From Cenococcum geophilum (Eukaryota), in the NCBI GenBank assembly GCA_050273025.1, contig CP158635.1:6014001-6078000 (forward strand): DNA of 64,000 nucleotides, written 5' to 3'. The notes beneath the pieces were generated by a model. That model saw only the letters and a program-made list of their open reading frames with translations. It did no database searches and had not been told where the DNA came from. The first letter of the stretch is position 1. Each line of letters starts with the position of its first letter. Positions 7,776 to 62,121 of the stretch are shown here, one piece after another. Both the position numbers and the translations under genes were made by a program.

Positions 7776-9125
7776 TTATACTAAGCTCTCCCTACCTTGC
7801 CTGGAAAGGCCTTAATAATATCCTACCCCAAAGAAACTTCATCTGCAACGACGTATTAACGCGCTATACTTAGACACCAAAACAACTTTATATTGCCTGG
7901 GAAGGCCTAGATAATATCCCACCTTATAAGCTAGACAGGACTGGACCTATACCCCCAGAATTAAAACTAAAGCGTATAATACCGACGAACCTTAGGAAGC
8001 TAATAATAGCACCTAAAGCAAGCTTATTTAAGAGAGCTGCCTCTACCCAAGAGGAACCTAAGATCCAATTAGGATTAGAAATTGAAGATAATGATGACGT
8101 TATAGACGTACGCGAGCAGATTCGTGCCCTTGCAGCTAGCCAGGAAGCCAATCGTCTTAAAGCGAGAAATATATAAGAGACCCTACAAGAGATCCTAGAA
8201 AGCCTTACAGCCCTATAAAATAGCCTAGCTTTCCCTTTTTAAAGCCCTAGCCGACCTGTTTACTTTACTAAATGTAATATACCAGGGAGTACGGATATAA
8301 TAACAAAGTAATTAAAGTCCATTAAGCTCTTTAACCCCCCACCACTATCTAACGGGATAGACCCTACCTTTAAGAATTAGAGGATTTAAGTATAAGGAAA
8401 GCTCCGCGTTAACTATAACTATTTCCTTTCTAAAGAAGCTAAAATACTTTACCTCTTTGGTTAAACTACTGGGGATACCTAACGGCACCTTTAAGCCAAG
8501 TTTAAGGATGACTTCCCTGTCTAATTTATATCCGTTAATAAGATAATATAGCACCTAGCGGCTATCTATATTAACCCGAATAAAGTACAGGATGCCCGTT
8601 ATAACTATAATCGCCTAATAATAAAACCGAACTAACCCTTTACTAAATTCTAGACTTAATTCCTATACCTTGCAGGAGAAGGCTAGGTCCCCCTTAAGAA
8701 CTACCGATTAGACCTATATAATAAGCTAATAATCCGGCTATAAGAAAAGATTGCTGTAACCTTAGATAACCTACTAACCTATAAAAGACTCGCAGCTTAT
8801 TGCCTATTATTAGACTTAGAACTAAAGTAGATTAACGCCCGCCCTAATTGGTAGAAGCAACTCTATAATAATTAGAACTCGCTAGCTATACCTATAGAAG
8901 CTAGAGTAGAAAAATAAGTTATAACTACTCTTTTACTAAAGGCGGTTATAACTACGCACCGGCGAGCCTCGCCTAACTAGTTATATACTATACTATTAAC
9001 TAGTATTCGCTGCAATACTCTAATTAACCCTACCTCGGCTACGTACTTTAACTATAATAAGTACATTAGGAAAATATTCGCAGGATAAGATTTAAGTAGA
9101 CTTTGGTTTTCGCGTTTCGCGTAAT

Positions 9126-9518
9126 TAACATACAATTTAACCAACTTAACACGTAATTAACTAACTTAATACGCAGTTGACCTACTTAATATATAATTTA
9201 ACTAACTCGATACGCAGTTAACCTACTTAACATGCAATTTAACTAACTTAACACGTAGTTAACCTACTTAACATACAATTTAACTAACTTAACACATAGT
9301 TAACCTACTTAACATATAATTTAACTAACTTAACACGCAGTTAACCTACTTAATATATAATTTAACTAACTTAATATGTAGTTGACCTACTTAATATATA
9401 ATTTAACTAACTTAACACGCAGTTAACCTACTTAATATGCAATTTAACTAACTTAACACGCAGTTAACTTACTTAACATATAATTTAACTAACTCAATAT
9501 GCAGTTAACCTACTTAAC
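9126..9518. repeat. 41-bp tandem array (20+21-bp subunits) in element X1
   Basis: Unit ttaacctacttaacatgcaatttaactaacttaacacgcag with RIP-type variants; counterpart at about 25335-25890. Confidence 0.9.
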
Positions 9519-9648
9519 AACTTTAAAAGCTAACTATATATTTCTTGACGTGCGATTAAGGTAAAGTTATATATTATATATTTAACTATTATATATAATC
9601 TTATACAATCTTATACAATCTCATACAATCTTATAGTCTTATTACTTG

Positions 9649-10001
9649 GAGGCTCTGCACGAGGCTCTACACGAAGCTCTGCGTACAGAGGCTCTGCACG
9701 AAGCTCTGCACGAAGCTCTGCACGAGGGTCTGCGCGAGGGTCTGCGCGAGGGTCTGCGCGAGGGTCTGCGCGAGGGTCTGCGCGAGGGTCTGCGCGAGGG
9801 TCTGCGCGAGGGTCTGCGCGAGGGTCTGCGCGAGGGTCTGCGCGAGGGTCTGCGCGAGGGTCTGCGCGAGGGTCTGCGCGAGGGTCTGCGCGAGGGTCTG
9901 CGCGAGGGTCTGCGCGAGGGTCTGCGCGAGGGTCTGCGCGAGGGTCTGCGCGAGGGTCTGCGCGAAGCTCTGCGTACAGAGGCTCTACACGAAGCTCTGC
10001 A
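9649..10001. repeat. 12-bp tandem array in X1, including 20 perfect GAGGGTCTGCGC units at 9724-9963
   Basis: Directly visible; counterpart at about 24677-25238 is dominated by GAAGCTCTGCAC. Confidence 0.95.
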
Positions 10002-10132
10002 TCGGGTCCCCGCTATATTCCCGATAGCCTCTACACGTGCCTCTACCGTATGTAGCCACCTTATTTTTTACCCTTCCTTCCTTCTTTATATCCTCCCTAC
10101 CTAGGGAGGCACCAGAACGGCAGCCAGCAGAG

Positions 10133-10555
10133 GACCGTTGCTAGAACTAGACGACCGTCGCCAGAACCAGATGACCGTTACCAGAACCAGACGACCATCG
10201 CCAGCCAGACGACCGTCGCCAGAACCAGACGACCGTTGCCAGAGCCAGACGATCGTCGCCAGAACCAGACGACCGTCGCCAGCCAGACGACCGTTACCAG
10301 AACCAGACGACCATTGCCAGAGCCAGACGATCATCGCCAGAACCAGACAACCGTCGCCAGCCAGACGACCGTTACCAGAACCAGACGACCGTCGCCAGAA
10401 CCAGACGACCGTCGCCAGCCAGACGACCGTTACCAGAACCAGACAACCGTCGCCAGAACCAGACGACCGTTACCAGAACTAGACGACCGTTGCCAGAGCC
10501 AGACGACCGTCGCCAGAACCAGACAACCGTCGCCAGAGCCAGACGACAACGACTA
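10133..10555. repeat. 20/21-bp tandem array (CCAGAACCAGACGACCGTCG-like) in X1
   Basis: Directly visible; counterpart at about 24185-24560. Confidence 0.9.
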
Positions 10556-10597
10556 GCCAGCCAACACTATAAACGATTCGATCAATCGATCAAATTA

Positions 10598-10877
10598 AGG
10601 TAGCACAGACAGGTAGGCACAAACAGGTAGATGCTGACGGGTAGGTAAATGTAGACAGGTAGGTAGATACAGACAGGTAAGCAGATATAGATAGGTAGGT
10701 AGATGCAGATAGGTAAGTAAATGCAGATAGGCAAGCAAATATAGATAGGTAGGTAGATGCTAACGGGTAAGTAGATATAGATAGGTAGGCAAATATAGAC
10801 AGGTAAATATAGATAGGTAGGCGATGCAAATAGGTAGGCGATGCAGGTAGGTAGGTAAGTCAATAGGTAGATAGGTA
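10598..10877. repeat. About 18-20-bp purine-rich tandem array (AGGTAGGCAGATGCAGAT-like) in X1
   Basis: Directly visible; longer counterpart at about 23750-24140. Confidence 0.85.
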
Positions 10878-13800
10878 AAAGAGAACCATTGCTATATTAT
10901 ATTAAATTATCTAAAATAATAATATTTATTTTGCTAGCCTTATAAATAGCTTTAAAATAGCTTTTATTTATTTAAAATATATTATTAGTATAAAAGAGGT
11001 AAATATAATTATAGTTGCCAAATGCGCAGATTGCTGGTAGGTTGCGCGTAGGTTACGCGTAGGTTGCGCGCAGGCTGCGCGTAGGCTGCGTGTTAAAAAA
11101 ACACGACATAGGCTAGTCGGTCAAGTTGCCAAATGCCCTCAACTGCGCGCCAATTGCGTTAACCACCAACCATTGAGGCTATTGAAAGGGTACCATATTT
11201 TGCCGATATAGGGTTACTTTGCCTCGTCCTGCCCAGAGCTAAAAGATATAGGCGATATTAAGGAGATAGAGGAAGGAGAAATGTTAGATAAGTTAGGAAA
11301 AGAGAAACCCTAGGGAAAGACTCCCCTTTAGGGTACCCTATCGATCTTAAAGAGATTAATCTTAGTTAGTTAATAGATGGAAAGCATTTTATATTTCTAT
11401 ATATAGTATCTTAAAATAGATATAGAGTTAATATAACCGCCCTTATTAACACTAGAGTAAATAGCTTTGCCTTTATAAATATTACCTATATAAATAATAT
11501 TACCAAGTTTCTAAATATAGAAGCCATCTAACTAGAGAAGCCTATTTAGGTAAAAGGCTATAACGGCTAAGCTGGTTGGCCTATTACCTACGTCTTAAAG
11601 TTACATATTGCTCTTAACGGACGACGCCAATACAGTATCCCCTTTTACATCCTAGACCTAGGGTCTTACGATATAATCCTTAGACAAAAATAGATATCCT
11701 ATTTTAATATCTAGTTAAATATACAATAAAGACGGTTTATCTAGCCGGAGGATAGACTAAAGTTGCCCTCCTTTATTAGGGAGATCCGAACTAACCGTAA
11801 GACACTAGCCGTAAGGGCTAACCCTATTTACTAGTAGGATATCTGGGCCCGTGACCTAGCCTTTACCTAAGAAGACGCCCGCCACGAAGCTAGAAAGAAC
11901 TCTATACTGATAAAGATACTCTCCTAAAGCGCTACGTTTAAAGAGGACTTTACGTACGGAAGCGGGACAAATAGTAACATAGACGACGTCTAAATTGCAC
12001 GGATTTAACTGGTATGGAAAAGAACATATTAATAGGATATAAGGGATAACCTCTAAAAGATATAATAGGAGCTAAAAGGGGTAATAATAACGCCAGTACC
12101 CCGGAAGTCCCTAAAGTCATATACACCCCTATTGTTAGGCAACCCCCCTACCGTAGATATCGCCGCAATTAGCGCTATAGCATTCCACTTTAATATATAC
12201 CGGAAGAACAATAAGGTCTTTACAACGAGCCTATATAAGATTAACCAAATTATTAATAATAGAGAGGAAAGGCTAGCTAAGGAAACTAACAAGGAACTAG
12301 TTAAATGCCTTCTTTTTACTATTTATACAAACTACAAGGATGCATTCTTAAAGGCGGCCTTAGATAAGTTACCCCCCTACCAAACATACGATTATAAGAT
12401 TCAATTAGAAGCCAATAACTCGCTAGGCTATAGCCCCCTCTACTATTAATTAACGGATAAGCTAAAAGTAATAAAGTAGTACTTAATTGATAACCTGGAT
12501 AAGGGGTTTATTAAGCCAAGTTAAGCCCCTTTTACTTCCCCTATCCTGTTCGTAAAAAAGCCTAATAGAGGCCTTCATTTTTATATTGACTATTAGAAGC
12601 TAAACGCTATTACTTAAAAGGACCAGTATCCTATTCCTTTAATTAATAAGACCCTTATACGTCTAAGCTAGGTAAAGATCTTTACTAAACTTAATATCCG
12701 TTAAGCTTTTTACTAAATTAGGATAAACCCTATATTTAAAGATTTAATAACATTCCGTACCCGTTATAGTTCCTATAAATATAAAGTTCTTCCTTTTAGA
12801 CTAATAAACGGACTAGCTACGTACTAAAGGTATATAAATAATATTCTTTTTAATTACCTTAACGAATTCTGCACGGTATACCTAAACGACATTCTTATAT
12901 ACTCGGATAATAAACTTAAGCATTAAGTTCATATTAAGAAGGTCCTGGAAAAACTACGGAACACGGGCTTATAAGTTGATATTAAGAAATACAAGTTTGG
13001 GGTAAAACGTATAAAATACCTTAGGTTTATCGTAACTATAGAAGGAATTAAGGTCAACCCTAAGAAGGTAGAGGTAATCTATAACTAGAAGCCCCCTTAT
13101 ATAGTAAAAGGAATCTAGTCCTTCTTTAGCTTTTATAACTTCTACTACTGGTTTATCTATAACTACGGAATTGCGGTAAAACCTCTTATATAACTAACTA
13201 GGAAGGATACGCCTTTTATCTTTAATAATAGCTATATAGAAGCCTTTAAAGAGATAAAGGATTAGCTTATCTTTTCCCTAATCCTTTATCACTATAACCC
13301 GGACCTTAAATTAATGCTAGAAATGGACGCCTCTAATAGGGTCGTAGCGGGAATCCTATTATAGTTATATCTAGACGGCGAATGGTACCCTATAGCTTTC
13401 TTCTTAAAGATAATAGACCCGGCTAAGTGTAACTATAAAGTATATAATAAAGAAATGCTAGCTATTATTTAATTACTTTTCTAATAGCGCGTAGAGCTCG
13501 AAGGTATATATTCCTAAATTAAGATATATATAGATTATAAAGCCCTAAAGTACTTTATAACTACAAAGCAGCTTACTAAATAATAGGCCTAATGGGCCGA
13601 AATACTCTCCTAATTCTTCTTTACAATTATATATTGTTCTAGTAAGTAAAACTTTAAGGCTAATGCCCTAACCTAAAGAGAATAAGATGTAGGCCCCTAG
13701 GATAAGCTAAAGACCTAATATTAGACGCATGCCCTTCTTTATCTAGAACAGCTTGACCCACAGATCATTAAGGAGCTAGACTCTTAGTAAAACGAGCTAG

Positions 13801-14280: not shown

Positions 14281-17200
14281 TGTAAGAGGCCAGCCTAACT
14301 AGAACATATAATTATCTAATTAACAGTGTCACCAGTAAGTAGAAGGTAAGTTAAAGGTAAATAGAAGGTAAGTTAAAGGTAGAATGAGTTTTACATATTA
14401 AAGGACAAATGCTTCTAACTACTTCTATTTAGAGACTAATCGCTAGTTCTTCTCTAGAGGAGAACTAGCTCCCTATATAATCTTTCTAAGACGCTAGCAA
14501 AACCCTTTACCCCTTATCTGTCTAACTATGTCTTTTGGGACGTAGATAGAATATAGGTAAGACCTCCTTTTAGAATATAGATGAGACCTCCTTCTAGAAT
14601 ATAGATAAGACCTTCTTTTGTCTTATCTAATATATACCTTCTAGGGAATTCCATTATAATTACCTCCCCTTTAAGGGTCTTAGTCCTCTAAGACTTCGCC
14701 TCTACTAAGCTTTTATAAAGTTCCGGCTAAAACCACTAAGGAAATTCTTAGTGGAAAGGTACTCTATAATACGGCTTATAGCTAGTTCTTTACTAGCGTA
14801 GAACCTTACTTTATTCTTAGTTCCTCTGCTTTTTTCCTACTATAGTTCCCTATAATGCCTTTATAATAGAACTAAAATAATAATAATAAAAATTAGATGG
14901 GATTCACCTTTCTTATTATAAGAGTTTGTTATAAGTTGATTTGGAGGTTATCCTATATAACGCGTCTATAAGCCACTATCCCTATTTACCTAAAATGGAT
15001 TCTAATAATAATATCTTTATTTTAATTTTCTTCCAGTTTATAAGCTATTGCCTCTTACACGTCTTTTCATCAATAACACCATTCGTCTCGTCTTTCAGCA
15101 AACTATTTCCTCTATATCTCCGCTTTTAGCTTTTATATCTTTAGCTATTCTTTTATAGCTGCTTTATTCTCTTCTTATAACATATCTATAAGTAATAGGA
15201 TCCCTACCTTATCTTTTTATAATAATGCTAACTTCTTAGAGTATTCTCTTATAATGGCTCGTGGTCCCCAGACCAGCGGTAGTGTTATTAATCTTCCGGT
15301 AACGCCTTAGACAGCGTCTGTTGCTCCTGCGGCAGTTTCCCTAAAATGCTGTCATCGCTACATTTATGCTCTTACGTAAGATCCTTCCTACGTTTATAAA
15401 ATACCTCGCTCCGGCGAAAACAAATCCAAGTGCTCTTATTATTGTAGTAGGAGAAAGACCTACGTCCTAGTATTTCCTATTCCGTCCTATTCTAAATTTC
15501 GCTAATTATACTAGATTTCCGCTATCTATGCGCATAAAACTTATAGGCTCTAACACGCTATCTAAGATTTCCGCTAATATCCTAATAGTAATAGGCGGAG
15601 ACAGAAGGTGTCTTCCCTCGCTCGCAGACTCTTTAATTTTATAAGGGTTTCCACTACTATAGAGACGCAACGTTTTCGGATATATAGTATCTAGGAGCAC
15701 ATATGCAAACAGCTCGTCCTTATTAATAATAACATTTATACTCTTACGCAGACTACTTTAGCTAGGTGAGTTTCTCTAGTGACTTACTTAGGAACTGTGC
15801 TAACTCCTTTAGCTAATATCTCTTTAATCCCTACTTAGACGCCAATTTAGAACCTAGGGATACTAAGGATAGCGATAAAGGTTAAGATAAACGTTCTCCT
15901 CGCCAGTCTCCCGCCTATGCTGGTCCTTCCAGTACCTATTGTTCTAAGAAGAATATTAGTGAAAGTGCTAATGCTTTTGGGGATGGAGGAGCTAATAATA
16001 CCGTTAATAATGACGTTAAGATAGAAGAGGAGGCTCCTATTGCTGCTGCTGGTATTTAAGTTATTACCTAGCTCTTTTCTTCTTATAGAATAGCTTTATA
16101 TAGTGCCTCTCGGGTGCCTTTAGGATGCCCTATTATTGGGAATTAACTTTATACTTTAGGGATGCCTTTATTTTAAGCTTTGGTGATAATTTATATAAAC
16201 GTAGTATACTACTATAATCCCCATATATAATAAACGGGTAGTGTTCCTATAGGTGCCTTATAATTCTTTAAAATTTCTAATTCTTTATAGGCTGTCCTTT
16301 TGCTCCTCTTCGTACTATTAACTCTACTATATATCTCCGGTGCCAGGCCAAATACTCTTCTTTTATCCCTAGGGGATCTTACTAAATCCCTAAGGCCACT
16401 TCTTATAGTGCTATTACTCCTTCTTATATAGCGTCTTCTTTAAATAGTATCCCTAGTGGTTCTCCTATAAATTTCTATAGGCTTCCTCTTATAAGATTCT
16501 AGGATCCCTATTATAATAGCGAAACGTTTCCGTTCTTAATGCCTATACTTAATCCTATGGTTTTAATTTACGGGGTTTTCCCTATTACTTTACCTGTAGC
16601 ATATCCAGAACCATTTTTAAGTCTTTACCTTTAGTTCTTAGGAAGGTTTTAATTACGGTGTTATATCCCGGCTAAAGGTACTTCTTAGGTTCCTAACTAT
16701 TATGTGCCTAGAAGTATCCTTCTTAATAAACTAAAAATTCGCGCTTCTTCTGGCGCCATCTTTAGTCTAAAATGTCTTCTATATTCTATTCTAGTTCCCT
16801 ATTAATTTCGCTAGGTAGGGGCGGTTCCGCACCATCTCTTTTTTAGTATAGCTTTAGTAAAGAAACATAAAATATAGGATATATTAGATAAGATTTCAGT
16901 AATTCTAATTCATAGGCTTGGTTTCCTTTAGTTTTTTTAACTATCTTAAAGGGTCTGAGTTACCGGTGATCTAGCTTCTTCTTAATGCGTTTTATTCAGA
17001 TATTTTTTATAAATAATAAGACTTCGTCTCCTATCTTAAATTCTTTCGGCATATATTTTTTGTTATAGTACCTTTTTTGCACAGCCTAGGCGTCTAGCAA
17101 GTGCTTTTTAAGTTCCTCTCTGCGAATTCTTATTTGCTTAATTCTTTTGAACGCCGCTAATGCCTCTCTTTTAGGAACGATGTCCTTAACGTTCTAGGGG

Positions 17201-20200
17201 TTATTTACTTTTACCCCAAATAATGCTTTATAAGGGGTCATTTTTATACTACTATAGATGCTTATGTTATACACGTGCTGCGCTAAAGCTAACTATAATG
17301 TCTAATTATCCTGTTAATAATTAATATAGTAGCGGAGGTAGTGTTCCAATAACGCATTTAGATGCTCTATTTGCCCGTCTATTTACAGGTAAAAGGTAGT
17401 GCTTATCCTTTGCCGTATTTTCAATAAGAGATAGAATAAAGACCAAAATGCACTATTAAATACGGTGCCTCTATTAGACACAATTCCCCTTAGCGTACTA
17501 AACGAGAGCCACCGTTCCAAAAATAGGTCTGCCAGTTCTGCTACTATAATCGTTGTTATAACAGCAAAGTATCCTAAAAACTTTGTATACCTGTTGACGA
17601 TTACTAGAATAGCGTCAGCAACCTCTTTAGTTCTTATCTTGGTAGGGGGTAAGCCTGTAATAAAATCCATTATTAATTCTAATATGGGTCCCTGCGGAAT
17701 AGGAAGCACTAATAACTCGCCGTATAGGCAATGCCTGGATATCTATATCCTTTGGCACGTATTATACCTCAATATATAGTCCTTAACCTCTTCAGACATT
17801 CCATCCTAAAAGTATTTCCTTTAAACGGCCTTAAGGGTTCTATTGGCACCGTAGTGACCCCTAAGAGGGTCATTATAGAAGACCTTTAGAATTTTATCTT
17901 AAATTGCTTGGTCCTTCAAGATATATACAGCACCCTTAAAGCGTAATAGACCCTTTTAGTCTTGCTACTATAGCTTTTTAGTGACTCTAGCTAAGTTGGT
18001 CTCCACTATATCTTTCCACCTCTCCCTAGAGGCGAAGGCGTCCCTTTATTAAGCTTAAAGAAGAAGATCCGGAAAGGTTTCGTGCAGATTACTTACTTCC
18101 ATTTCGCCTGCCGCTATTATAAACTTAAGGTGTAGTACGAGACGTTTTAAACTATTAGTGCTAGCAGATTCTCCTACCGTTATATAGTATACTATACTAC
18201 AGATAGGTATCTCGCCTATCCCCTTTAGATCCGAGAACTCGCAGCTAATGCGCCGTCAAGTTAAAGGTGCCGCGATACCTCTAGCACATCCTATAGAATT
18301 CTCGCTAATTCTAGGGTACGCCAACTTTATAACATCTGCTTAGTCTATAACCTAGTCTATAACTATATCCTACGGCTCTATAATTATATCGCTTTACAGC
18401 TGCATCGCTAGGACCTCTACCCTACCGCGAAATTCTATAGTTCTAAGGAAAGAGTCTTCTTTCTTCCTAAGCAAATTTTATAATGTGGGGATTATTTCCC
18501 CTGTGCTGTCTTAGATCCTCCCTATCTTATAATCCGGACGTCTTAATAACCCATTAGCAGGATTTATCTTTCCTAGGCGGTACGTAATCTTAAAATCATA
18601 CTGCGATAGTGCCTTTGCCTACCTAGCTTGTCGACCGCTTAACACCTTTATAGTCATAAAGTATTCTAGGTTGTTATAGTCTATAAGGACTTTAATGGGA
18701 TAATTGCTTCCTATACAATAATGTCGCCAGTACTTTATTACTATAATTATCGCGAGCAGCTCCTAGTTATACGTTATGTAACGCTACTCTATAAGGGTCA
18801 TTTTCCTTAACTAAAACGCCATAAAATGCTATTTTCCGTCTTTTAATTGAGATATAATTGCCCCTAGGGTAAAGCCAGATATATCCGTTTTAAGGTATAT
18901 ATATAGCTCCTAGCAGAAGTATATTAGGATAGGCGCCGATATAAACAAATCCTTTAACTGGTCTATAGCCTACTTAGCAGCTTCCCTAAATATAAAGGGT
19001 CCTAACTTCCTGCTATTCTTAAATCCTTTTAGTAGATCAGTAATTAGGAGTATTACTTATAAGTAGTAAACAATAAACGTTTAGTAGAAGTTCGCCGTAC
19101 CTAAGAAAACCTATACTTCTCTAAATGTCATAGGGTAGGGCTATTCCCTAATGGCGTCCACCCGACTTTTCTCTATTGACACTCCGTTAACGCTAACAAT
19201 AAAGCCTAAAAAATTAATGCTAGTAGTATAGAACGTGCACTTTTTTAGGTTTATATAGAGCTTATATTCCCATAGTCTTTCTAGTACTATTTACACGTGG
19301 TGTATATATACTTCGTAGTTATTAGAGTAGACTATAATATCATTAAGGTAGACTATATATATTATGTCTAATAGGCCCAACAATGCCTTATTAATATAGG
19401 CCTGAAATATTACTGGTACGTTAGTAAGCCTAAATGGCATTACTAGGTACTTAAAGTGGCGTACTATATTTAGAACGCCGTTTTCTATTTATCGCCAGCT
19501 TTAATCCGGATTTAATGGTATACATCTTTTAGATCCAATTTTATAAATATCTTTATGCCCAACAGCCTGTTAATAAGCTCCCCTATTAAGGGTAACGGGT
19601 AGCAATTCTTTATAGTAATCTTATTTAGCGCCCGATAGTTAATATAGAGGCAAAGGGTCCCGTTCTTCTTAGGTATAAATATAATCGGTGCCCCTACCAG
19701 GCTTATAAAGGGCCAAATCCATTCTCTTTAAAGATTGTCCACTATATATTAACATAGTACCGCTAGCTCATTTTCTAACAGGTTATACAGCGGTCTAAAA
19801 AGAGGTTATTTATTCCCTATATCTATCTTATACTTAACCAATATGGGGTTAAGTAAGGTTTGTGCAGCCTCTTTACTAGAAATATCCTCTAAGTCTATAT
19901 ATTCCTATAGAATCTCTAGTTCCTTAACTGCGCATAGCCGGACATCCAAAAATAAATATCCTGTGTCCCCGTTCTTGGTGTCAAAAGTAGCATATATAGT
20001 ATATACCCACCCTTCTTCTTACACATAGTTTAAGAAAGTCTCTTAATCTTCAACTATAATGCGCGGTTAAGACTTCCGATGTTAATATAAGGCTAAAGGC
20101 CAATCAATATCCGGATTAACTTGGTAAAGCTATAGGTATCCTAAAATAAGGTTATACCCCTTAATTTCTACAGCATAGAAGCATATCTCCTGCGTGTCCC

Positions 20201-22066
20201 ATAGACTATTACAGTCCTAGCTGGCCACAGAAAAAGCTTATTCCCTATAGTATAGAATCTAGTAGCCTCTAATGCTTTAAACAGTGCGCACCTACAAGCC
20301 GCTAAGGTCTAAATCTAATTCTTTTACTAGTAATTAAGAAATAAACCCTATACTCACGCCGCTGTCTATAAGGCAGTCTCGCGTTACCTATTTATTATTA
20401 ACTTAAATAGAGACAGGAATAACTATACGGCAGTTTACTCCCTCCTTCTCTTACTGGCCTAGTATAAGGGAGTAAAGATCTACTAGGCTATCTCTTTTTC
20501 TAATTAGGCTAACTCTTGCTTCTTTTACCGGCAGAAGCGGCTTATATGGCCCTTCTTACCGCAGTTATAACAGGTGCGTGTCTTTTAGTTCCCCTCCTAC
20601 GGATTAGGTCTCTACCCATTGTTATTTTAAGGTTAACTAGCGTTACTTTAGGGCTATAAGGCCTGCTTACGTTGTCCTTTTATAGAGCGGTTAGGTCAGA
20701 ATCTACCCCTATTATTAAAGCTAGGTCTAGTCTTACGCTCTTTATTATTGGCGTCTCGTTCCTTTCACTTACCTAGATAATCTCTTTTAGCACTTTTAAT
20801 CCGAGTAGCTTTAGAGATAAGCTTTTCTCAAAAGGTAGGAATTTCGCCCTTTTCTTATATAGCCTGTTAAATCTTAGGTTATAGCTTAGCAAGTAGCTGG
20901 TGAAGTTATATAGCGTTATCCTATAGATCTAAGTAGGGTATATTGTCTTCTAGTTTTTTTAAGTAGTTTATAAACTAGACCACAGTCTAACTATCCCGCT
21001 ATTTGGCGTTATGGTATTACTAGTTATAGTCTATCCTTTAATTAGTAGGGTCTTAAACCTAATTAACTAACTAGGTCCTAAGTTCGCTAAATTTAAGGGG
21101 TATAGTAAGTTTCTTCTCATAGCGTGTCTATGAACTCTTAACGGTGCCACGTAGGAAGGTAGAAGTAATTAGTGTCTAATTATACTCGTTAGAGTAATAT
21201 TTCAAATCTAGCTAAAACTTAGTTTCGTATTATTGGATAAAATAATTGTAGTTCTAAAGACTATTACTATAGTACTTATTAGGTTCCTTTATGCGGAATT
21301 TAGGTTTTTCTAACGTTACAGTATAGTGTGGCGTTACCCCTTTAAGTCCGCTTTGTGTCTAGGGTATCTATACTTCCCCTAATTATCCTTACAATTATTT
21401 TTAGTAGTCTTAATATACTTATCTTAATCGTATCTCTAACTCCTTTGTTTTTTATAGGGTCTTATATAGCAACCGCTCCAATAACTCCCTAGCGGTAATC
21501 GTTTTTAAAGGTCTTATAAGGTTAGACAGACTAGCCGTAGCTTCTTCATAGAAAGAGGGAATGCGCTCCTCTAGGGAGACTCTTTAAGCCTCTTGCGGTA
21601 AGGGCGTTGCTTTATAGGGTATAGGAGTATAATTCGTTATCGTTAATTAATAGCCGTACGTTCCTAACGGATTGTAAGTAATTAGAATTATAAGAGGCTA
21701 GCTTAACCGGAATGTATAATTATCTAATTAACAGTGTTACCGGTAAGTAGAAGGTAAGTTAAAGGTAAATAGAAGGTAAGTTAAAGGTAGAATAAGTTTT
21801 ATATATTAAAGGACAAATGCTTCTAACCACTTTTATTTAGAGACTAATTGCTAGTTTTTCTCTAGAGGAGAACTAGCTCCCTATATAATCTTTCTAAGAC
21901 GCCAGTAAAACCCTTTACCCCTTATCTATCTAACCGTGTCTTCTAGGACGTAGATAGAATATAGGTAAGACCTCCTTCTAGAATATAGATGAGACCTCCT
22001 TCTGGAACATAGATAAGACCTCCTTCTATCTCATCTAATATGTACCTTCTGGGGAATTCCGTTATA
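14281..22066 (-). mobile_element. Ty3/Gypsy chromovirus B, full length, RIPed, inserted in the integrase of Gypsy A
   Basis: 378-bp LTRs at 14281-14658 and 21689-22066, TSD TAACC, PPT complement attacctccccttt at 14659. Minus-strand gag with CCHC near 20550, RT, RNase H, integrase (MDFITGLP ORF 17383-17709) and chromodomain at about 16640-16800. Confidence 0.95.
15254..16059 (+). pseudogene. RIPed antisense accessory gene inside Gypsy B: three exons, Cys6 zinc-cluster-like N-terminus, acidic C-terminus
   Basis: ATG at 15254. Introns at 15470-15514 (GTATTT..GCTAAT..TAG) and 15766-15812 (GTGAGT..GCTAAC..TAG). Stops in exons 1-2 are TAA/TAG. Reverting RIP-type changes gives C-x2-C-x11-C-x11-C-x2-C-x6-C. 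Confidence 0.65.
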
Positions 22067-23418
22067 TAACCGCTTTAATAAACGCCCGTTTTTAATTCCC
22101 TATTATAAGAATATTAATGCTAAAGAGGCAGCCTGGCTATATATCTATTACGTCTACTAAATCTATAGACTACTAGATACTATTATATCTAATTATAGGC
22201 TATAGTTTATATCGGCCTTCTAGAATAAGTTTATCCAAATCTTAGGCATTAAGCTAAAGCTTTTTACGGCTTATTACCCCTAAATAGACGGTTAGATAGA
22301 GATTGTAAATTAGTACCTAGACTAGAGGCTTAGGCCCTTTATTAACTATTTTTAGGACAACTGGTCTAAACTACTACCCTTAATAGACTACGCGTAAGCA
22401 ACCTTACCCTATAACTCTATAGGGTTTACCCCAATTTAGCTAGAAATGGGATACTTACCCTATATAAGCTTTAACTAAAAAAGGCTAAAAGAACCCTAGA
22501 CTGTATAAGAGAAGCTATCCTATGCTAAGGCCTAATAGTACGCTAAACGATTAGAGGAGGCCTAGATGGTAGCCCGTAAGAACCTAAAAAAAGCTTAAAG
22601 GTTAATAGAACAGTAGGCAAATAAACACCGTTAAGAGCCCGATTTTACCCTTAGCGATATAGTCTAGGTTATAATAAGGAATTAGAAAACTAAACAACCT
22701 AGCTATAAGCTAGACTACTAAATAGTAGGACTATATAAGGTTTTTAAGAAAATAGGCAACTCGTATAAGATAAAGCTTCTAGATTTAATTAGGGTTTACC
22801 CTATCTTTTTACTAGATAAGTTACGGAAAGCTATAAATAACCTATTGCCTAGATAAAAGAATAAGCCTCTCCTACTAGTTTAAGTAAACGGTAATAGTAA
22901 ATGGGAGGTTAACAAAATATTGGCCTATAAGATAGTATAGGGAACGCTAAAATACTATATCTAATAGAAGGGCTACAATCCTAACCTAACCTAGTATCCT
23001 ACGTGGAACTTTATAGGCTGCCCTTAAAAGCTTAAAGAATTTTATAACTAATACCCTAATATGCCTAGGCCCCCAAAGTACCTAGATAAATAGATAAAAT
23101 GCTAGTATAATAAAGATAATAAGTTACTAGAAGAATATAAGGATAAAAACGCCCTAAAGCCCTAATATAGCTATCTGCCAAATTCTGCCATATTCTGCCG
23201 TTTTCTACCAGTACTATAAAATATTAGATATCCAGGAACTTTAACCGCCAGTTAAAGTTGTCTAATTAGTTAGATCCGTGCCAAGACTTTTAACGGCTAC
23301 TCTTTCTAGCCTAGTGCTTCCACTTAGCCTACAATCGCCCTTTATACTTAGTCTGGACGTACTCTTATCCCCTTTATCTCCTTATCTTATATTTTATAAT
23401 CCTATATTTATAAGCCTA

Positions 23419-25950
23419 TATCGGCAAAATATAGTACCCTATCAATGGCCTTAATAGTTAGTAGTTAACGCAATTGGCGCGCAGTTAAGGGCATTTAGCA
23501 ACTCGACCGACTAGCCTATATTATATTTTTTTAACACGCAGCCTGCGCGCAGTCTACGCGCAACCTGCGCGTAACCTACGCGAAACCTGCTAGCAATCTA
23601 CGCATTTGGCAACCACAATTATATTTACCTCTTTTATACTAATAGCATATTTTAAATAAATAAAAGCTACTTTAAGGCTATTTATAAGGCTAGCAAAATA
23701 AATATTATTTTAGATAATTTAATATAATATAGCAATGGTTCTCTTCTACCTATCTACCTATTAACTTACCTACCTACCTATCTACCTACCTACCTATATC
23801 GCCTACCTGTCTACATTACCTACCTATCTGCATCGCCTACCTATCTGCATTGCCTACCTGTCTACATCGCCTACCTATCTGCATCGCCTACCTGTTTACA
23901 TTGCCTACCTATCTATATCGCCTACCTATCTGCATTGCCTACCTGTCTGCATCGCCTACCTATCTGCATCGCCTACCTATTTGCATCTGCCTACCTATCT
24001 ATATCTGCCTACCCATCAGCATTTACTTACCTGTCTGCATCTGCTTGCCTGTCTGCATCTGATTACCAGTCTGCATCTGCCTACCTGTTAGCATCTGCCT
24101 ACCCGTCAGCATCTCCCTATTTGTGCCTACCTGTCTGTGCTGCCTTGATTCGATCGATCGATTGAATCGTTTATAGTGTTCGCTGGCTAGTCGTTGTCGT
24201 CTGGCTCTGGCGACGGTCGTCTGGTTCTGGCGACGGTCGTCTAGTTCTGGTAACGGTCGTCTGGTTCTGGCGACGGTCGTCTAGTTCTGGTAACGGTCGT
24301 CTGGTTCTGGCGACGGTCGTCTAGCTCTGGCGACGGTCGTCTGGCGACGGTCGTGTGGTTCTGGTAACGGTCGTCTGGCGACGGCGACGGTCGTCTGGTT
24401 CTGGTAACGGTCGTCTAGTTCTAGCGATGGTCGTCTGGTTCTGGCGACGGTCGTCTCATTCTGGCGACGGTCGTCTGGTTCTAGTAACGGTGTTCTAGTT
24501 CTGGCGACGGCGACGGTCGTCTGGTTCTGGTAACGGTCGTCTAGTTCTGGCGACGGTCCTCTGCTAGCTGCCGTTCTGGTGCCTCCCTAGGTAGGGAGGA
24601 TGTAAGGAAGGATGGATGGATAAAAAAAATAAGGTGGCTACATAGGAGAGGCTATCGGAAATATAGCGGGGACCCGATGCAGAGCTTCGTGTAGAGCCTC
24701 TGTACGCAGAGCTTCGCGCAGAGCCTCGTGCAGAGCTTCGTGCAGAGCCTCGTGCAGAGCCTCCGTACGCAGAGCTTCGCGCAGAGCCTCTGTACGTAGA
24801 GCTTCGGGCAGAGCCTCTGTACGCAGAGCTTCGTGCAGAGCCTCTGTACGCAGAGCTTCGTGTAGAGCCTCGTGTAGAGCCTTATGCAAAGCTTCGTGTA
24901 GAGCTTCGTGCAGAACTTCGTGCAGAGCTTCGTGCAGAGCTTCGTGCAGAGCTTCGTGCAGAGCTTCGTGCAGAGCTTCGTGCAGAGCTTCGTGCAGAGC
25001 TTCGTGCAGAGCTTCGTGCAGAGCCTCTGTACGCAGAGCTTCGTGTAGAGCCTCGTGTAGAGCCTTATGCAAAGCTTCGTGTAGAGCTTCGTGCAGAACT
25101 TCGTGCAGAGCTTCGTGCAGAGCTTCGTGCAGAGCTTCGTGCAGAGCTTCGTGCAGAGCTTCGTGCAGAGCTTCGTGCAGAGCCTCTGTACGCAGAGCTT
25201 CGTGTAGAGCTTCGTGTAGAGCCTTGTGCAGAGCCTCTAAGTAATAAAACTGTGTAAAAATTTATTTGCGTAATTAGCATATAACTTTACCTTAATTGCA
25301 TGTTAAGGAATATACAGTTAGCTTTTAAAGTTGTTAAGTAGGTTAACTGCGTGTTATTTAACTTTTAAATATATTAAGTAGGTTAACTACGTATTAAGTT
25401 AGTTAAATTATATATTAAGTAGGTTAACTACGTGTTAAGTTAGTTAAATTACATATTAAGTAGGTTAACTGCGTATTAAGTTAGTTAAATTGCATATTAA
25501 GTAGGTTAACTGCATATTAAGTTAATTAAATTATATATTAAGTAGGTTAACTGCGTATTAAGTTAGTTAAATTATATGTTAAGTAGGTTAACTGCGTATT
25601 AAGTTAGTTAAATTATATATTAAGTAGGTTAACTGCATGTTAAGTTAGTTAAATTATATATTAAGTAGGTTAACTGCGTATTAAGTTAATTAAATTATAT
25701 ATTAAGTAGGTTAACTACGTGTTAAGTTAGTTAAATTGCATATTAAGTAGGTTAACTGCGTGTTAAGTTAGTTAAATTGCATGTTAAGTAGGTTAACTGC
25801 GTATTAAGTTAGTTAAATTGCGTGTTAAGTTAGTTAATTACGTGTTAAGTTAGTTAATTGCGTGTTAAGTTAGTTAAATTATATGTTAATTACGCGAAAC
25901 GCGAACACCAAAGTCAACTTAAATCTCATCCTGCGAATATTTTCCCGATG
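23419..25950 (-). mobile_element. Non-autonomous TIR element X, copy 2 (inverted), in the 3' UTR of Gypsy A
   Basis: TA flanks at 23417-18 and 25951-52; ends tatcggcaaaatat / atattttcccgatg; same five arrays in reverse order with different copy numbers. Confidence 0.88.
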
Positions 25951-26009
25951 TAGTACTACCCTATTTCTAACTAAGCCTAAAGGCAGGCTTTCTTTAAAGA
26001 GGGGGGTAA

Positions 26010-29555: not shown

Positions 29556-31156
29556 TCAGACACAACTGTCCAAAGCATCAATCCTAGCTTTCCAATTCTT
29601 AACTATTTCTCCAATACGGCGCACCTTGTTGAGCTCAGCCTGGAGCTCATCCATCTCGCTTAGAATCATTTTGAACCTCCGAATCTGTTCGTCTGCTGTT
29701 TGAGCTGGGGTGTCGCCGGTATCATAGCGAACAACCACTGCAAGTCGAGCTTCTTCTGACAACTGCCCATTCGCAATAATTATTAGCTTTCAGTTTTTAT
29801 GCTTTCTAGGAAAATATGGCTCACCACTTGCCATCGTGCTTGGATACTATTTAGCAAGCAGTTAAATCGTGACTTCAGTTCTTGAAGTCCTGCAGGATCC
29901 AAATGAATTTGGCCGTAAGTATCCATGTTCTGTGGCAAGTTGTACAAGCTCTGATTCAACAAGAGGCTCATCGAGTGAGTGTTGTATACGTTCTCATTGA
30001 GCCGCAGGACGTCCGTCCGTCCGTCCATTTCAATAGCCAGTCTTGTCTCTGATTCGATGAAGCTGTTAGAGGAGCATAACTTTAAGCCCTGCTGAAGTAG
30101 CTTGCTGAATTTCTTCTTGTCTTGGGTAGTTTCAAGATCTCCTAATCGAATCACGGCTCGTAGGACATCCACATAAACCTCCTCTGACTTTTTTGAGTAA
30201 TCGGCAATTACATGCTGTTGATCGCTTAAGTCGCCCCTTCTTGTCAGGCCTAATAACGCATATACCTTGTCTCTAATGTCAGAGCATTCTAGGTTCTGAA
30301 ACATCTCCAAAAGTTTTTCAAGGGGAACCACTCTGAATGCAGCTGGTAGATTCTCCCATATAGTCTTGTGTTCGAACATCTGACCAGCATAGCTTTCGAG
30401 AACCGCTGCAGCATACGGGTGGTGTTCGATACGGCCATTGGCCGCAACACGTTGGAGCTTTTTAATCACTTGATCCATGCATCGCCACTCGACACTCTTC
30501 TGGCCGCACATAACCTCAATCCTCTCGGCAGCCATGATCTCCTGGACGACCCAGATACGTCTCCAGTACCGTCTTTCGCAGAGTGCTAAAACAGCTTTGC
30601 CTTCATTGGACTTCCAGATATTTCGCAAGCCACTTCCCTTCCGTTTTATGGGTCTAGGCCCCTTTTCGCGGATGTAGTCCATAGCAATATCGCTATTGTC
30701 AGCCGCTTGGCCAAGCCAAACTGCTACTAACGCTGCCTTTTGAAATGTCAGCTAAAAGTAAGCGCCATTGTACGGGTGCTCTTATACATTGCTGTATATT
30801 TGCCTCATCAAATTAACTTGATGATTCCTTTCCAATATGTTGGACTGATCAATGCAAAGAGCATCAATCCAAAACAGCTTCCGCCGGTTGCGGAGACGCA
30901 TATGGTGGAGAAACCACCATAGGTTCTCTCGAGTCATGAACCGGCAATTATTAATTTGGATCTCTTTGAGGTGATTGGCTGGACCCCATGTGTATGACAG
31001 TGCAACGTAAGGCGGACATTTTGAGAGAGGAAAGCATTGAAAGTTACATTTGATCGTGGATGAGTCGGACTCGGAGGCCGGCTGAAGCTCAACGAGTCTG
31101 ATATTTTGATAGGCTAAGTCGAGAGCTGTGGTTTCGTAAACCGAAGACAAGGACAT
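29556..31156 (-). CDS. HET-domain (heterokaryon incompatibility, HET-6-like) protein, three exons
   Basis: Motifs IRLVEL, YVALSYTWG, FWIDALCIDQ..ERNHQV.LM..IYS.A..V.VWLG, YWRRIWVVQE and DKVYALLGL. Intron 30737-30787; a second intron at about 29763-29824 joins a short helical C-terminal exon. Confidence 0.9.
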
Positions 31157-52118: not shown

Positions 52119-54727
52119 CTAACCTTCAAGCTCCCTTACCATCCTAAGGAATTCAAGCCGTTCTTCGCAACCACCCCAGCCACCCCAGCCATGCTTTTCT
52201 TCAACCCGCTTAATCCCTCTTCCGTCACCACCCTCTAAATCGTGGTCGTCTTGCTTTGTCCAAACGCCTCTCTGGTCCTTCAACCGTGCGCCGGAACTAA
52301 GCGTAGGGATAATAAGACTAGCGAGATGCCCGCGCGTGGACGTCATGCGTAAAGCACTAATGACATTATCCTCAATGTAGCCCTTGGAGACCATGCGAGT
52401 GAGAAAGGCGGAGATAGACGGCCCGTCGAGCGGGGGATCAGGGTCTGCTTCTTCTTCATCTTCCTCCGTTTCTTCTAGGCTATATGTTGCCGGGGGCAGG
52501 GGTGCAGCTGAACGCTGTTGACGTTCTCGTTCTAGAGAGCGGATTTCCCGTATTGAGTATGATGTAGAGTTTGATTCTGCCGGGAGCGGTGGCGAGGAAG
52601 GCGGTGCGGCGGAAAGGCTACGGCTTTGGGTAAATCCGCCTTCAGGCTCAGGGAGGGACAGGTCAAGAGGCTGAGTTTCCACCGAGAGGATCGCTTGTGT
52701 ATCTAGAGAGGTAGGTGCCTGGTGACGGCGGGCGCGTGGAGTCGGAGTAGGTGACATAGTGTTGTCCCAACCACCTTCCGGAGGTGCGAGATCGAAGTCC
52801 ATATTCAGTATGGCGTCTAGAGATGCTGAGAGTTGTGGATTTTCATGCTCCAATTCGTTTTGAGGAATTTGGGGTTGCTGTGGCTGGGGAAGAGACTGAG
52901 CAAGGTACTCTTCTTCCCCACCTCCATCATTGATGACATCTTCGTAGGCGGTGTACTGCGTTTGAAGTTTTTCAGGGAGATAGTCATCATCCTGCTTCTC
53001 CTGCTCCTCCCCCTCCTCCTCGTCACATTCCTTGTCATCCGACACCTCAATATATCCAGGACTAGGCTTTGTCACAGACGCAATTTCATCTTCTTCTGTG
53101 TCATTGTCTTGAACAAATAATGGACTTTCATGCCGTTGCTTCTTCTTTCTGTGTAATACGTCGACTTGTTGTTGGGCATCTGAGATTTCGTCATCCCGAT
53201 ATCGTTTCTTGGACTAAATTGGTCAGTTTCGGGAGGAAAGCACGTTCTGTATTTACACATACTGCGTTTTCTAGGTCCTTCTCTAATTCATATCGTTCTC
53301 TATCAGCTTGTTCCATAGCATTATAAGATGCTTGGTCTTCTTCAGACATAGCATTCCACTTAGGAAGAAGCACCTTATGGCGAGCAGCTGTAAGTATAAA
53401 AGTCAGTTAGAAGGTTCACATGGCCTGCTGTGACAAATAACTCACTAAAATCACTTGAGTCTACACCCATCACTATATCCATGTTGTTCTCGACAAAAAA
53501 CTTATATGCCTTCATCGGTGGTTTCCCTTGGCGCTCCTTTGCTAATTTTTCAACGAGAAAAGCGTGAGATTTGGAACTTTCAGTTTCTACATTCTCAGAA
53601 GAAACAGCCTTGCCATCTTCTATAGCGTCCACTGCGCGTAGGAAGTTCGGAGAGGGAGGCGTTCTGAATCCACTTTTCTTTAGCGGTGTTGCATTTTCGA
53701 CTTGTGGCACCTCTGATCGTGTGGATTTTTGAGCTTCTGGCCTTGTAGATGGTTCCCCAGTGGAAGTAGTAGCCGTTTGCTCATGATTCCCATCCCGCTT
53801 ATCTTCCTTCGCCTTACGATCCTTTCCCCACTGGGGCAAGACTTTCTTCTCATAATATGTCCGCCACTGTTCCGCGCTGTGGGAGGTTTCTTTCGCCCAC
53901 AGGTCCCAAGCCTGGAGATATGTTGCAACTCTGCAATCCAGGATTGAGGGAACGTTTTCATAGAGGTCGTCCCAGTCCTGCTTCGTGAATTTGGGCGACT
54001 CAACTGGGTTCGTCGCTTCTCCCATCCTAACATTCTCTCCCGCACGTATAGACCCAAATTTCTTTTTGGCTTTGGGTAGGTTCGCGGTTACTCGTTCAAC
54101 GGGTTGATCGGAGGGGGGTGAAGGAGGATTCGTGGACACAAATGCAGAAGATGGCTTATTCATGAGTTGCTTGATATAGCGGTCGCGCCATGACTGCCAC
54201 GGGTGCCGTGGATTCTGCAGTCGTCAATTATAATATAAGAGATAGCTAAGGTGATGAGCCCATACCTCTGTCTCCAACTGCTTATAGATCTCATTACCAG
54301 ATATAGCGCCACTCTTCCGTTCATGATCTTTAACCCAATTGTACAACTGCCTGTCATCCTCGGCTGTATACGGCACCCGGCTGCTCTTCGCAGATATGGA
54401 TGAACCAATGTCTCGAACAGTGCCTTCTGGGGGTCCAGCACGGTAATTTTCGGGATTTTCTCGTTCTCCCCTACGAATTGATTGCTCTATGAACTCGTAT
54501 GATATGCCACCAGGAGGAACATTCTTACGTACGTGATCAACAATTAGATAGTCTGCCTGCTTCTCGAGAGGCACAATTTGGCCGCCGTTACTCTTAACCT
54601 TGTCGATAAAGCTGGAGCGCATGGGACACCGCTGGGAGATCCAGAATTTCAAACCATCAAACAGTTGGCCTTGTATATCGGAGTCCTTAGCAACATTGTT
54701 GTAGACTATTCGCGCGTGTTCTGTCAT
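52119..54727 (-). CDS. RAP1: Telomere-associated protein Rap1 (BRCT, Myb, C-terminal RCT domain) with an internal HMG-box-like segment, four exons
   Basis: BRCT LFDGLKFWISQRCPMRSSFIDKVKSNGG; Myb YTAEDDRQL..SGNEIYKQLE..NPRHPWQSWRDRYIK; RCT ALRMTS..GVWTKQDD..L..KHG..RLEFL. Introns 54215-54265, 53388-53445 and about 53214-53262 keep one frame. Confidence 0.9.
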
Positions 54728-54998
54728 CGTGTTACGTACGGTACCGATGCGGAGGCCGACTTTCGGTTGACGCGTTTTCACGCGACATCAACGGTCTTGG
54801 CGAAGATGGGTCGGACTGGGTTGTGCTTCACTACAGTGGCCTCAAGTCAGACGGTAGAGGAGGAAGAACACCAAAGGGCACACGGATCATACCATCAACC
54901 AGCAGAAACTAAGCTTGCTTGCAACAAAAATCTGGATATCTCCACACACGAAGTCTTACCCCGCTATGCCGGCCTAAAGAACCGTCACAGCTCCGGAG
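54728..54998. promoter_or_regulatory. Probable bidirectional promoter between RAP1 and SWF1
   Basis: Only 271 bp separate the two divergent ATGs; function is inferred. Confidence 0.5.
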
Positions 54999-61414: not shown

Positions 61415-62121
61415 ATGTCTGGCTACGAAGGCATGTAGCGACTACTATTCTAACCAGAAGAACATTCTAACTCGCCACAGTCGAGCATAACATCCCCGCG
61501 AACGAACCCAGGCCTGCCCGTCGCCCCGACCTATCCACCTTCTTCTCCACCCTCGAGCTTATCGATACGTCCGACGAGCAAGGTCATCACAATGTGCACG
61601 CACTACCTCAGCCCGACGATATGACCGCAGCGTACCGGCTGCTTGCGAACGCATTCGAGATGATGCGAGGTGGAGATTCTGGGCAGGAACAGCAGGATGG
61701 CGGAAACGATCTACTGGCGACTATGGTCCAAAGCTTAATGGAGAGTGCCAATGACCCGCCGCGCGAGCTGCAGGGCGTGCCAAATAGCTTTCTCGATGAG
61801 CTAGAAAGGGTGCCGAAGAAGGCGTTGAAGAAGACGGATACCTGTCCAATATGCTGCAACCCATTCCTTGATGGTAATACTCTAAGACTTGAACAAGGAT
61901 ATAAGATAATACAGAAGCTAATGGTGTCGCATGCAGATGAGTACCCACTTGTAGTTCAGTTACCTTGTCACAAAGATCACCGCTTCGATCTTGATTGCAT
62001 ACGGCCTTGGCTGAAGCTTAACTCTACTTGCCCGCTCGATCGCAAGGTTTTGACCAAGAAGGAGCCACCTGTGCTGGAGAAGGATGATGATGATGGCGAG
62101 TGGGACGATATGTATGCCTGA
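61415..62121 (+). CDS. Small RING-H2 finger protein (putative E3 ligase), three exons
   Basis: MSGYE/VEHN start, RRPDLSTFF, CPIC..FLDDEYPLVVQLPCHKDHRFDLDCIRPWLKLNSTCPLDR. GC-AG intron 61431-61480 and GT-AG intron 61874-61936. Confidence 0.9.

Follow-up and report, generated by a model that had tools for sequence, protein, structure and literature searches.

Only gag and pol are usually considered necessary for long terminal repeat (LTR) retrotransposons. The closest described departure from this rule is found in Boty, a chromodomain Gypsy element of Botrytis and Sclerotinia, which carries an antisense gene, brtn, between pol and the 3′ LTR; the gene was published in 2011, and we draw on its description in papers that cite it (PMC8365987, PMC7264820, PMC4227169). 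Antisense additional open reading frames (ORFs) have also been described in the same interval of the plant elements Grande (gene23), RIRE2, Retand and PvRetro13. According to the passages cited here, these ORFs occur in most copies of a family, lack similarity to known proteins and have been proposed to play a nuclear or regulatory role, with Grande gene23 having its own promoter (PMC7264820). The same passages refer to an antisense promoter in the 3′ LTR for retroviral antisense genes and, as far as they extend, name no known function for the antisense extra ORFs of either plants or Boty (PMC7264820). Here, we analyze a 64,000-nt stretch of the Cenococcum geophilum genome (assembly GCA_050273025.1, contig CP158635.1, positions 6,014,001 to 6,078,000 of the forward strand; hereafter the window, in whose numbering all coordinates are given). 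In this window, an LTR element at 14283-22066 (7784 bp), with gag-pol on the minus strand, bears an antisense gene with three exons and two introns on the plus strand at 15254-16059. With a probability of roughly 0.8, we read this locus as a dead copy, altered by repeat-induced point mutation (RIP; repeat-induced C-to-T and G-to-A changes), of a real accessory gene that a high-copy Ty3/Gypsy chromovirus family carries opposite gag-pol and that ancestrally encoded about 240 residues.

The locus shares with Boty a fungal chromodomain Gypsy background and an additional gene that lies in the interval from pol to the 3′ LTR, opposite gag-pol and across family copies; the likeness to brtn is one of position and orientation. 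An earlier note on this DNA, made from the letters alone, had presented an antisense gene in the 3′ region of a chromovirus as a novelty, which the 2011 publication of brtn shows to have been overstated. The plant antisense ORFs agree with our gene in position and orientation as well, and three of the features by which such ORFs are recognized are present here: the gene lies between the pol stop and the polypurine tract, has its coding strand opposite gag-pol, and occurs in family copies. In contrast to the C. geophilum gene, the plant ORFs reside in plant elements, some of which are not chromoviruses, and no sequence relation is shown, whereas the two introns reported here have comparative support. 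A further analogue is HBZ of human T-cell leukaemia virus type 1 (HTLV-1), a spliced bZIP nuclear factor. In common with HBZ, our locus has an antisense gene near the 3′ LTR, a predicted spliced transcript and a small, basic, nuclear-type protein, with regulation being an inferred property in our case only. There is no homology between the two, and HTLV-1 is a vertebrate retrovirus.

The plus-strand reading proposed in the earlier note, which started at 15254 and ended in an acidic tail closing with EEEAPIAAAGI and a stop, matches the window letter for letter. The two introns it described (45 and 47 nt, with CTAAY branch sites, Y being a pyrimidine) could be located and are needed to obtain one frame. 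Once spliced, the window copy gives 237 codons in a single frame with 8 internal stops, all TAA or TAG, of which two lie in exon 1, four in exon 2 and two in exon 3, ahead of the terminal TAA at 16057-16059. Retention of intron 1, whose branch site reads CTAAT in this copy, would end the product at 15503, and removal of intron 2 (GTGAGT...CTAAC...TAG) supplies exactly the frame shift required. The copy in this window is therefore dead, inactivated by RIP. Taken singly, it is also within chance: ORFs of 57-83 residues occur on both strands, the codon-aligned frame of the opposite strand is about equally open, and canonical-looking short introns appear 11 times per 70 kb of RIP-mutated strand. 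The single window copy is thus insufficient, and it is the addition of family copies that carries the signal of the antisense gene beyond chance.

To collect such copies, a word-indexed protein search was run with the tail of the gene. It returned five ORFs of 71-78 residues, all ending at the stop of the window gene, and their alignment seeded a scan of metagenome contigs that yielded 80 loci. Of these, 50 span 14600-16700 at 74-90% identity and, together with the window, constitute the 51 aligned rows on which the counts below are based. The whole element is collinear, LTR to LTR, with 28 loci, and the gene is present in 28/28, a count biased by recruitment through the gene tail, since copies lacking the gene could not appear. 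RIP has affected 50/50 of the spanning loci (TA/AT 1.28-1.71). Thousands of pieces, 80-99% alike, from contigs of two DNA sequencing runs cover 30/30 bins of 14283-16900, and their differences are nearly all transitions (X1: 406 transitions against 8 transversions among the listed kinds), so the extra DNA is part of a high-copy, RIP-mutated family. A one-off insertion, named in the earlier note as an outcome that would speak against its proposal, is not the case, as the gene is found in two subfamilies and in every full-length collinear locus. The consensus protein matches only the antisense gene locus in the window and, within the loci, has a second place in three interrupted copies only. Scanning viral contigs for the C-terminal part of pol yielded 4 pattern matches, 0 of them confirmed. 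Many of the fetched contigs (L004, L014, L021, L025, L028 and others; e.g., L004:2765-3994) hold a second Gypsy family, with a reverse transcriptase (RT) region only 56-63% identical to that of the family described here.

RIP was reversed in the family consensus by restoring C or G wherever at least 2 copies and 5-8% of a column retain C or G. Spliced at the proposed introns, the resulting consensus reads through 240 codons with 0 stops under both the 5% and the 8% rule, and thereby passes the test of an open spliced frame that had been set beforehand as one able to refute the gene. The other five frames contain 1-3 (codon-aligned minus frame), 4-5, 4-5, 11 and 19-20 stops. Taken alone, the open-frame test is weak. 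Because RIP cannot remove a stop, ancestral stops are expected in nearly all copies, and in the plus frame the stops present in at least 50/51 copies are confined to 15503, 15512, 15767 and the terminal TAA at 16057. The first is the TAA of the intron 1 branch site (51/51), the second coincides with the intron 1 acceptor (50/51) and the third with the intron 2 donor; among exon codons, 0/235 have a stop in at least 90% of copies. In pol, used as a control, 4/946 codon columns of the true frame carry a stop in every copy, versus 21-47 in the other five frames. Exon 2 has no Met codon in the consensus and would therefore be translatable only when spliced to exon 1.

Insertions and deletions (indels) shared among copies respect the same gene model. 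Within exons, 4/5 are multiples of 3 (12 and 6 nt in exon 1, 3 and 6 nt in exon 3), the fifth being a 2-nt indel in two copies, as against 1/21 outside the exons (flanks 1/20; Fisher p = 0.0016). In intron 2, a 1-nt indel divides the copies into groups of 28 and 23 and is tolerated only there, and the zone free of frame-breaking indels, at ~15220-16075, coincides with the ATG and the TAA. The signals kept in the family are the ATG, a GTAAGT donor, both CTAAC branch sites, both TAG acceptors and the TAA. Over the 51 copies, the start codon counts are A51/T51/G29, with the third base being A, a RIP product, in the other 22; the donor positions of intron 2 are kept in 47-51/51 copies, its TAG acceptor in 48/51 and the terminal TAA in 51/51. 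The log-likelihood ratio of codon usage, sense versus mirror frame, favors the plus frame by +31 bits with all training genes and by +45 bits with host genes only, a measure that was positive in 20/20 chunks of 240 codons from known genes (24-145 bits), with the host genes oriented by Pfam.

Selection was assessed between the consensus sequences of subfamily A (22 rows, namely the window and 21 loci from one contig set) and subfamily B (27 loci from another set), with L007 and L015 excluded. In the plus frame, the ratio of non-synonymous to synonymous divergence (dN/dS) is 0.18, from 73 synonymous and 55 non-synonymous differences, versus 1.11 in the codon-aligned mirror frame on the minus strand (1.76, 0.80 and 1.03 per exon). 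For comparison, pol gives 0.25 in its true frame and 0.6-1.18 in its other frames, and the flanks give 0.46-0.91 in arbitrary frames. This check, which the earlier note had suggested, points to purifying selection on the plus frame. To guard against the noise of incomplete RIP reversal, we sorted the differences by type. Outside the TpA context, transitions are distributed 9/10/42 over codon positions 1/2/3 of the plus frame (p = 3e-8), compared with 22/13/48 in the true pol frame; the corresponding transversions are 12/7/15 (p = 0.24) and 5/2/11, respectively. The flanks are flat in these codon-position counts. The proposal of an intron-containing, protein-coding gene opposite gag-pol is thus supported by dN/dS, by the indel pattern and by the placement of fixed stops. 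The frame, stop, indel, dN/dS, codon-position, signal and codon-usage tests, taken together, show a real plus-strand gene with two introns, which was under purifying selection while the family diversified.

The same comparisons address whether the coding strand could instead be the sense (minus) strand of the element, with a third ORF or an extension of pol past the chromodomain, of which the plus frame would be a codon-aligned shadow. When trained on pol, a RIP-insensitive purine/pyrimidine codon model gives its highest scores over 14883-16082 to the minus frames, and the purine content at codon position 1 of the minus frame is 0.66. Stop counts in the mirror frame follow those of the plus frame, with no exon stop in at least 97% of copies, and training the codon-usage ratio on pol only turns it to -27 bits, in favor of the minus frame. 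The high score of the pol-trained model, however, extends into the non-coding 14883-15253, where 15/16 shared indels break any frame, and hence reflects a purine-rich sense strand rather than coding. We rejected the verdict of this model on that ground and on two others: the RNY (purine, any base, pyrimidine) pattern is unchanged by reverse complementation, and dN/dS contradicts the model, being 1.11 in the minus frame versus 0.18 in the plus frame. Differences between the subfamilies are in excess at position 1 of the minus frame, not at position 3. Furthermore, the minus frame cannot be read through: stops stand at 15506, 15776, 15800 and 15809 in 96-100% of copies, and the frame changes across 15766-15812, a segment that is 46 nt long in some copies and 47 nt in others. 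A gene on the sense strand is, in our judgment, very unlikely.

Alternatively, the extra 2 kb might be non-coding, either as a 3′ untranslated or regulatory region or as the template of an antisense non-coding RNA, with the spliced ORF arising as an artefact of intron choice and RIP reversal. The chance-length ORFs of the window copy and the frequency of canonical-looking introns fit this explanation, as do the opening of all frames by RIP reversal, the LTR-like density of shared transversions, the failure to find relatives outside the family and an RNA run without reads on the gene. It is at odds with a plus-frame dN/dS of 0.18 versus 0.46-0.91 in the flanks, with the third-position excess of 9/10/42, with shared exon indels in multiples of 3, with fixed stops confined to introns and with an indel-free zone that matches the ATG and TAA. 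We regard it as improbable.

A number of observations nonetheless weigh against a real accessory gene. RIP reversal opens all frames, and with stricter rules stops return in every frame (at 25%, 5 in the plus frame and 6 in the mirror frame). No intact copy was found, as 0/46 rows with a spliced length that is a multiple of 3 (of 51) are stop-free, and the fewest stops in a spliced copy are 5 (L059). The codon ratio reverses with pol-only training, as given above, and the intron 1 donor, GTATTT, is weak and non-consensus, without G at +5. Transversions are not attributable to RIP, and those shared among copies number 12-26 per 300 nt in the extra region, 22 in the LTRs and 2-5 in pol, making the region as dense as the LTRs and 4-6 times denser than pol; the antisense protein would thus have evolved fast. 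By codon position, shared transversions are distributed 16/9/19 or 12/7/15, which is not significant. The introns have 1 shared transversion per 92 nt versus 44 per 714 nt in the exons, the opposite of what unconstrained introns would show; both introns may be densely packed with signals or share sequence with a signal of the sense RNA. Synonymous divergence between A and B is 0.43 in the antisense gene versus 0.18 in pol (16641-19482), with the flanks also lower at ~17%, and we found no explanation for this difference. The proposed function, moreover, is read from composition only, the fold prediction being poor.

Nor was there transcript evidence: in one RNA run, of which ~12% of reads were examined and whose organism label differs from that of the best-matching DNA runs, depth was 0 over 14723-15866 and 0.27-0.55 over 15867-16042, with no splice joints. 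The copies seen, all of them RIP-mutated, are probably transcriptionally silent. Reads do occur at 14371-14722, in the 3′ LTR and just past it, at a depth of up to ~10 and with the first mate on the minus strand. All of these reads are <95% alike and so belong to copies other than this one or to related LTRs.

The gene resembles host genes in its introns and codon usage (+45 bits when host genes are used for training), which would also suit a captured host gene or fragment (transduction), carried as a passenger with no role for the element, and capture of cellular sequences by retroelements is known from the cited portion of PMC7264820. Presence of the gene in two subfamilies and in 28/28 full-length collinear copies (a count biased in that loci were found via the gene) speaks against a passenger, as does purifying selection during diversification of the family. 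No cellular homologue was found among 1.84 billion representative proteins, and the gene has no second place in the window. Simple capture therefore strikes us as a very remote prospect; an ancient capture followed by co-option would merge with the accessory gene that we favor.

The encoded protein is distinguished by a cysteine cluster, which differs from the one first proposed. The earlier note reverted four Tyr codons to Cys and read C-x2-C-x11-C-x11-C-x2-C-x6-C, a variant of the Zn(II)2Cys6 spacing. Codon counts in the 51 copies uphold the reversions at 15359 (TGY 30/51), 15440 (10/51) and 15461 (14/51). At 15395, by contrast, the codon is TAT in 50/51 copies and TGT in 1/51, and so few survivors of an ancestral Cys would have p ~1.6e-4 even at the lowest retention of the other sites. 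The middle Cys was Tyr, so the variant spacing fails and the consensus matches neither it nor the canonical pattern. The consensus does contain six clustered cysteines, as claimed, at another spacing: surviving Cys codons at 15347 (35 copies), 15350 (26) and 15431 (27), in addition to the three upheld reversions, give the ancestral pattern CC-x2-C-x23-C-x2-C-x6-C. Written out, the cluster is K-CC-RR-C, 23 residues including a His, C-S-H-C, six residues and C.

Zn2Cys6 identity was rejected, as C-x2-C-x6-C-x5-12-C-x2-C-x6-8-C is absent from the RIP-reversed consensus; a generic C-x2-C...C-x2-C pattern is present. The protein resembles Gal4-type Zn(II)2Cys6 domains (PF00172) in having six Cys in a basic N-terminal stretch and a second half that fits C-x2-C-x6-C. 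It departs from them in the first half, where C-x2-C-x6-C is replaced by CC-x2-C followed by 23 residues. The consensus protein has a calculated isoelectric point of ~10.8 and a net charge of +18 over residues 34-107, a basic tract that contains the six clustered cysteines and two histidines. Ser, Asn and Asp are abundant in its tail, the end of which is acidic. A probably helical segment followed by an acidic C-terminus is an arrangement shared with many fungal activators. AlphaFold2, given the 174-residue L059 read-through and a 33-row alignment, returned a mean predicted local distance difference test (pLDDT) score of 40 and a predicted template modelling score of 0.21, with helices at pLDDT 50-61. 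DUF3716 (PF12511), found in genes of the Zymoseptoria DNA transposon REP9 in the cited part of PMC8232023, is likewise a cysteine-rich module in a fungal-transposon gene, a likeness that serves as a lead only.

Homology searches used natural, RIP-damaged copies, and this damage lowers their sensitivity. Neither Zn_clus (PF00172) nor DUF3716 matched any of 33 natural copies at E <=1 (0/33 each), copies that had lost cysteines to RIP. Across Pfam as a whole, these 33 copies gave four single weak matches (E 0.038-0.22), which we take as chance. A profile of the same copies had 0 matches in the Protein Data Bank at E <=10, and exon 1 of L075 had no usable match in the ESM Atlas. The profile search of the 1.84 billion representative proteins produced 6 matches, none of them a true relative outside the family. 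Five were short ORF fragments of the mutated family, and the remaining candidate, a 3015-residue repeat protein matched in 11 stretches, was judged spurious on reading. A word-indexed search with the exon 1-2 read-through of the window left 0/19 candidates at E <=0.01 (proteins of 94-300 residues), and a scan of the loci for ORFs with a six-Cys pattern found only 2 low-complexity repeats. Judged by sequence, the product defines a new protein family with no detectable relatives, encoded by a retrotransposon accessory gene of a type already known.

These features suggest how such a gene could operate. Antisense introns are not recognized in the genomic RNA of an element and, for that reason, pass through reverse transcription. 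Only an antisense transcript from its own promoter could be spliced and translated. The product would place a cysteine cluster and basic tract first, then a probably helical segment and finally the Ser/Asn/Asp-rich tail with its acidic end. Zinc binding by the cluster is putative, and we put its odds at about even. By composition and by analogy with retroviral antisense and accessory factors, the product might be a small zinc-binding, nuclear, nucleic-acid-binding protein that regulates the element's own transcription, RNA handling or silencing. We offer this regulatory role tentatively, as less probable than zinc binding itself.

The carrier is a Ty3/Gypsy chromovirus. With stops read as X, its minus strand matches the Pfam families zf-CCHC, RVT_1, RT_RNaseH, Integrase_H2C2 and SH3_Tf2-1 and, weakly, Chromo (E 0.03); none of the three plus-strand frames of the element matches a Pfam family. 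Chromo passes the Pfam cut-off in 2/3 less mutated copies (L059, 29.3 bits; L075, 25.7 bits; L036 scores 19.7 bits), which identifies the carrier as a chromovirus. LTRs, a gag zinc knuckle, the order RT/RNase H/integrase and a C-terminal chromodomain (~16639-16782) are all present, and no protease family was matched. Along the pol frame, the first stop shared by 51/51 aligned copies is the pol stop at 16555-16557. From there to the polypurine tract, the extra DNA measures ~1.9 kb, which bears out the ~2 kb reported earlier between the chromodomain and the tract. The promoter of the antisense gene is presumed to lie in the non-coding region upstream of it, and the spacer between the convergent genes presumably comprises the 3′ untranslated regions of both. 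RIP is strong throughout the first 28 kb of the window (TA/AT 1.46-1.96 in 2-kb bins). Both LTRs contain a 24-nt unit three times, at 14547-14619 and 21955-22028 (87-88% matches). Coordinates of the element and the antisense gene are collected in the table.

Table. Features of the Gypsy element and its antisense gene, in window coordinates.
Feature	Coordinates	Strand	Basis or remark
3′ LTR of Gypsy element	14283..14658	-	376-nt direct repeat with 21691-22066, 91.8% identical
Polypurine tract, AAAGGGGAGG on the element's sense strand	~14663..14672	-	Read beside the 3′ LTR in the window and the family consensus
Non-coding region upstream of antisense gene	14673..15253	+	15/16 shared indels (14600-15253) not multiples of 3; no codon periodicity
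Exon 1: start codon, Pro/Ala/Gly-rich N-terminus, cysteine cluster (15347-15463), start of basic tract	15254..15469	+	dN/dS 0.11
Intron 1	15470..15514	+	45 nt; acceptor TAG; family-fixed in-frame stops inside
Exon 2: basic tract, then low-confidence predicted helical region	15515..15765	+	dN/dS 0.30; open in consensus
Intron 2	15766..15812	+	47 nt here, 46 nt in 28/51 copies; GT(A/G)AGT donor, CTAAC branch, TAG acceptor
Exon 3: Ser/Asn/Asp-rich tail, acidic end	15813..16059	+	dN/dS 0.17; shared indels of 3 and 6 nt
Spacer between convergent genes	16060..16554	.	0/4 shared indels multiples of 3; subfamily differences without periodicity
gag-pol, RIP-mutated	16555..21690	-	Pfam domains, fixed stop; pol dN/dS 0.25 over 16641-19482
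5′ LTR	21691..22066	-	Direct repeat with 14283-14658

Around the element, segments at 9062-11216 and 23411-25952 form an inverted repeat with arms of ~2.2 kb that are 87-91% complementary. Four tandem arrays, with units of 41, 12, 20 and 17-18 nt, make up each arm, their order in one arm mirroring that in the other, and the Gypsy element lies in the 12-kb interior. The arrangement is similar to a foldback-type element, or to an inverted duplication that received the Gypsy insertion. Unmutated host genes flank this repeat island at 29786-30751, 52122-54787, 55306-56445, 58630-59232 and 61471-62118; they encode a HET-domain protein, a Rap1-like telomere protein (BRCT, Myb_Rap1 and Rap1_C across three ORF pieces), a DHHC palmitoyltransferase, a short-chain dehydrogenase and a RING-finger protein. 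Between 35092 and 40020, the minus strand holds successive long ORFs without a clear Pfam family.

As the gene is dead in this window, its direct biological consequence here is nil. Our results illustrate that dead copies alone can suffice to prove such a gene, by means of dN/dS between subfamilies, shared indel lengths and the positions of fixed stops, and they add a protein family that combines a cysteine cluster with a strongly basic tract and has no detectable relatives. As a speculation that we hold to be unlikely at present, the gene could represent a widespread and largely unannotated class of antisense regulators encoded by fungal Gypsy elements. These would be spliced genes for small, zinc-binding, nuclear proteins that switch on the LTR or blunt host silencing, hidden by RIP and from gene callers since almost all copies are mutated. 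If true, this class would be a fungal counterpart of retroviral accessory genes, and if such genes regulate their own elements, they would bear on how transposons escape or provoke fungal genome defence.

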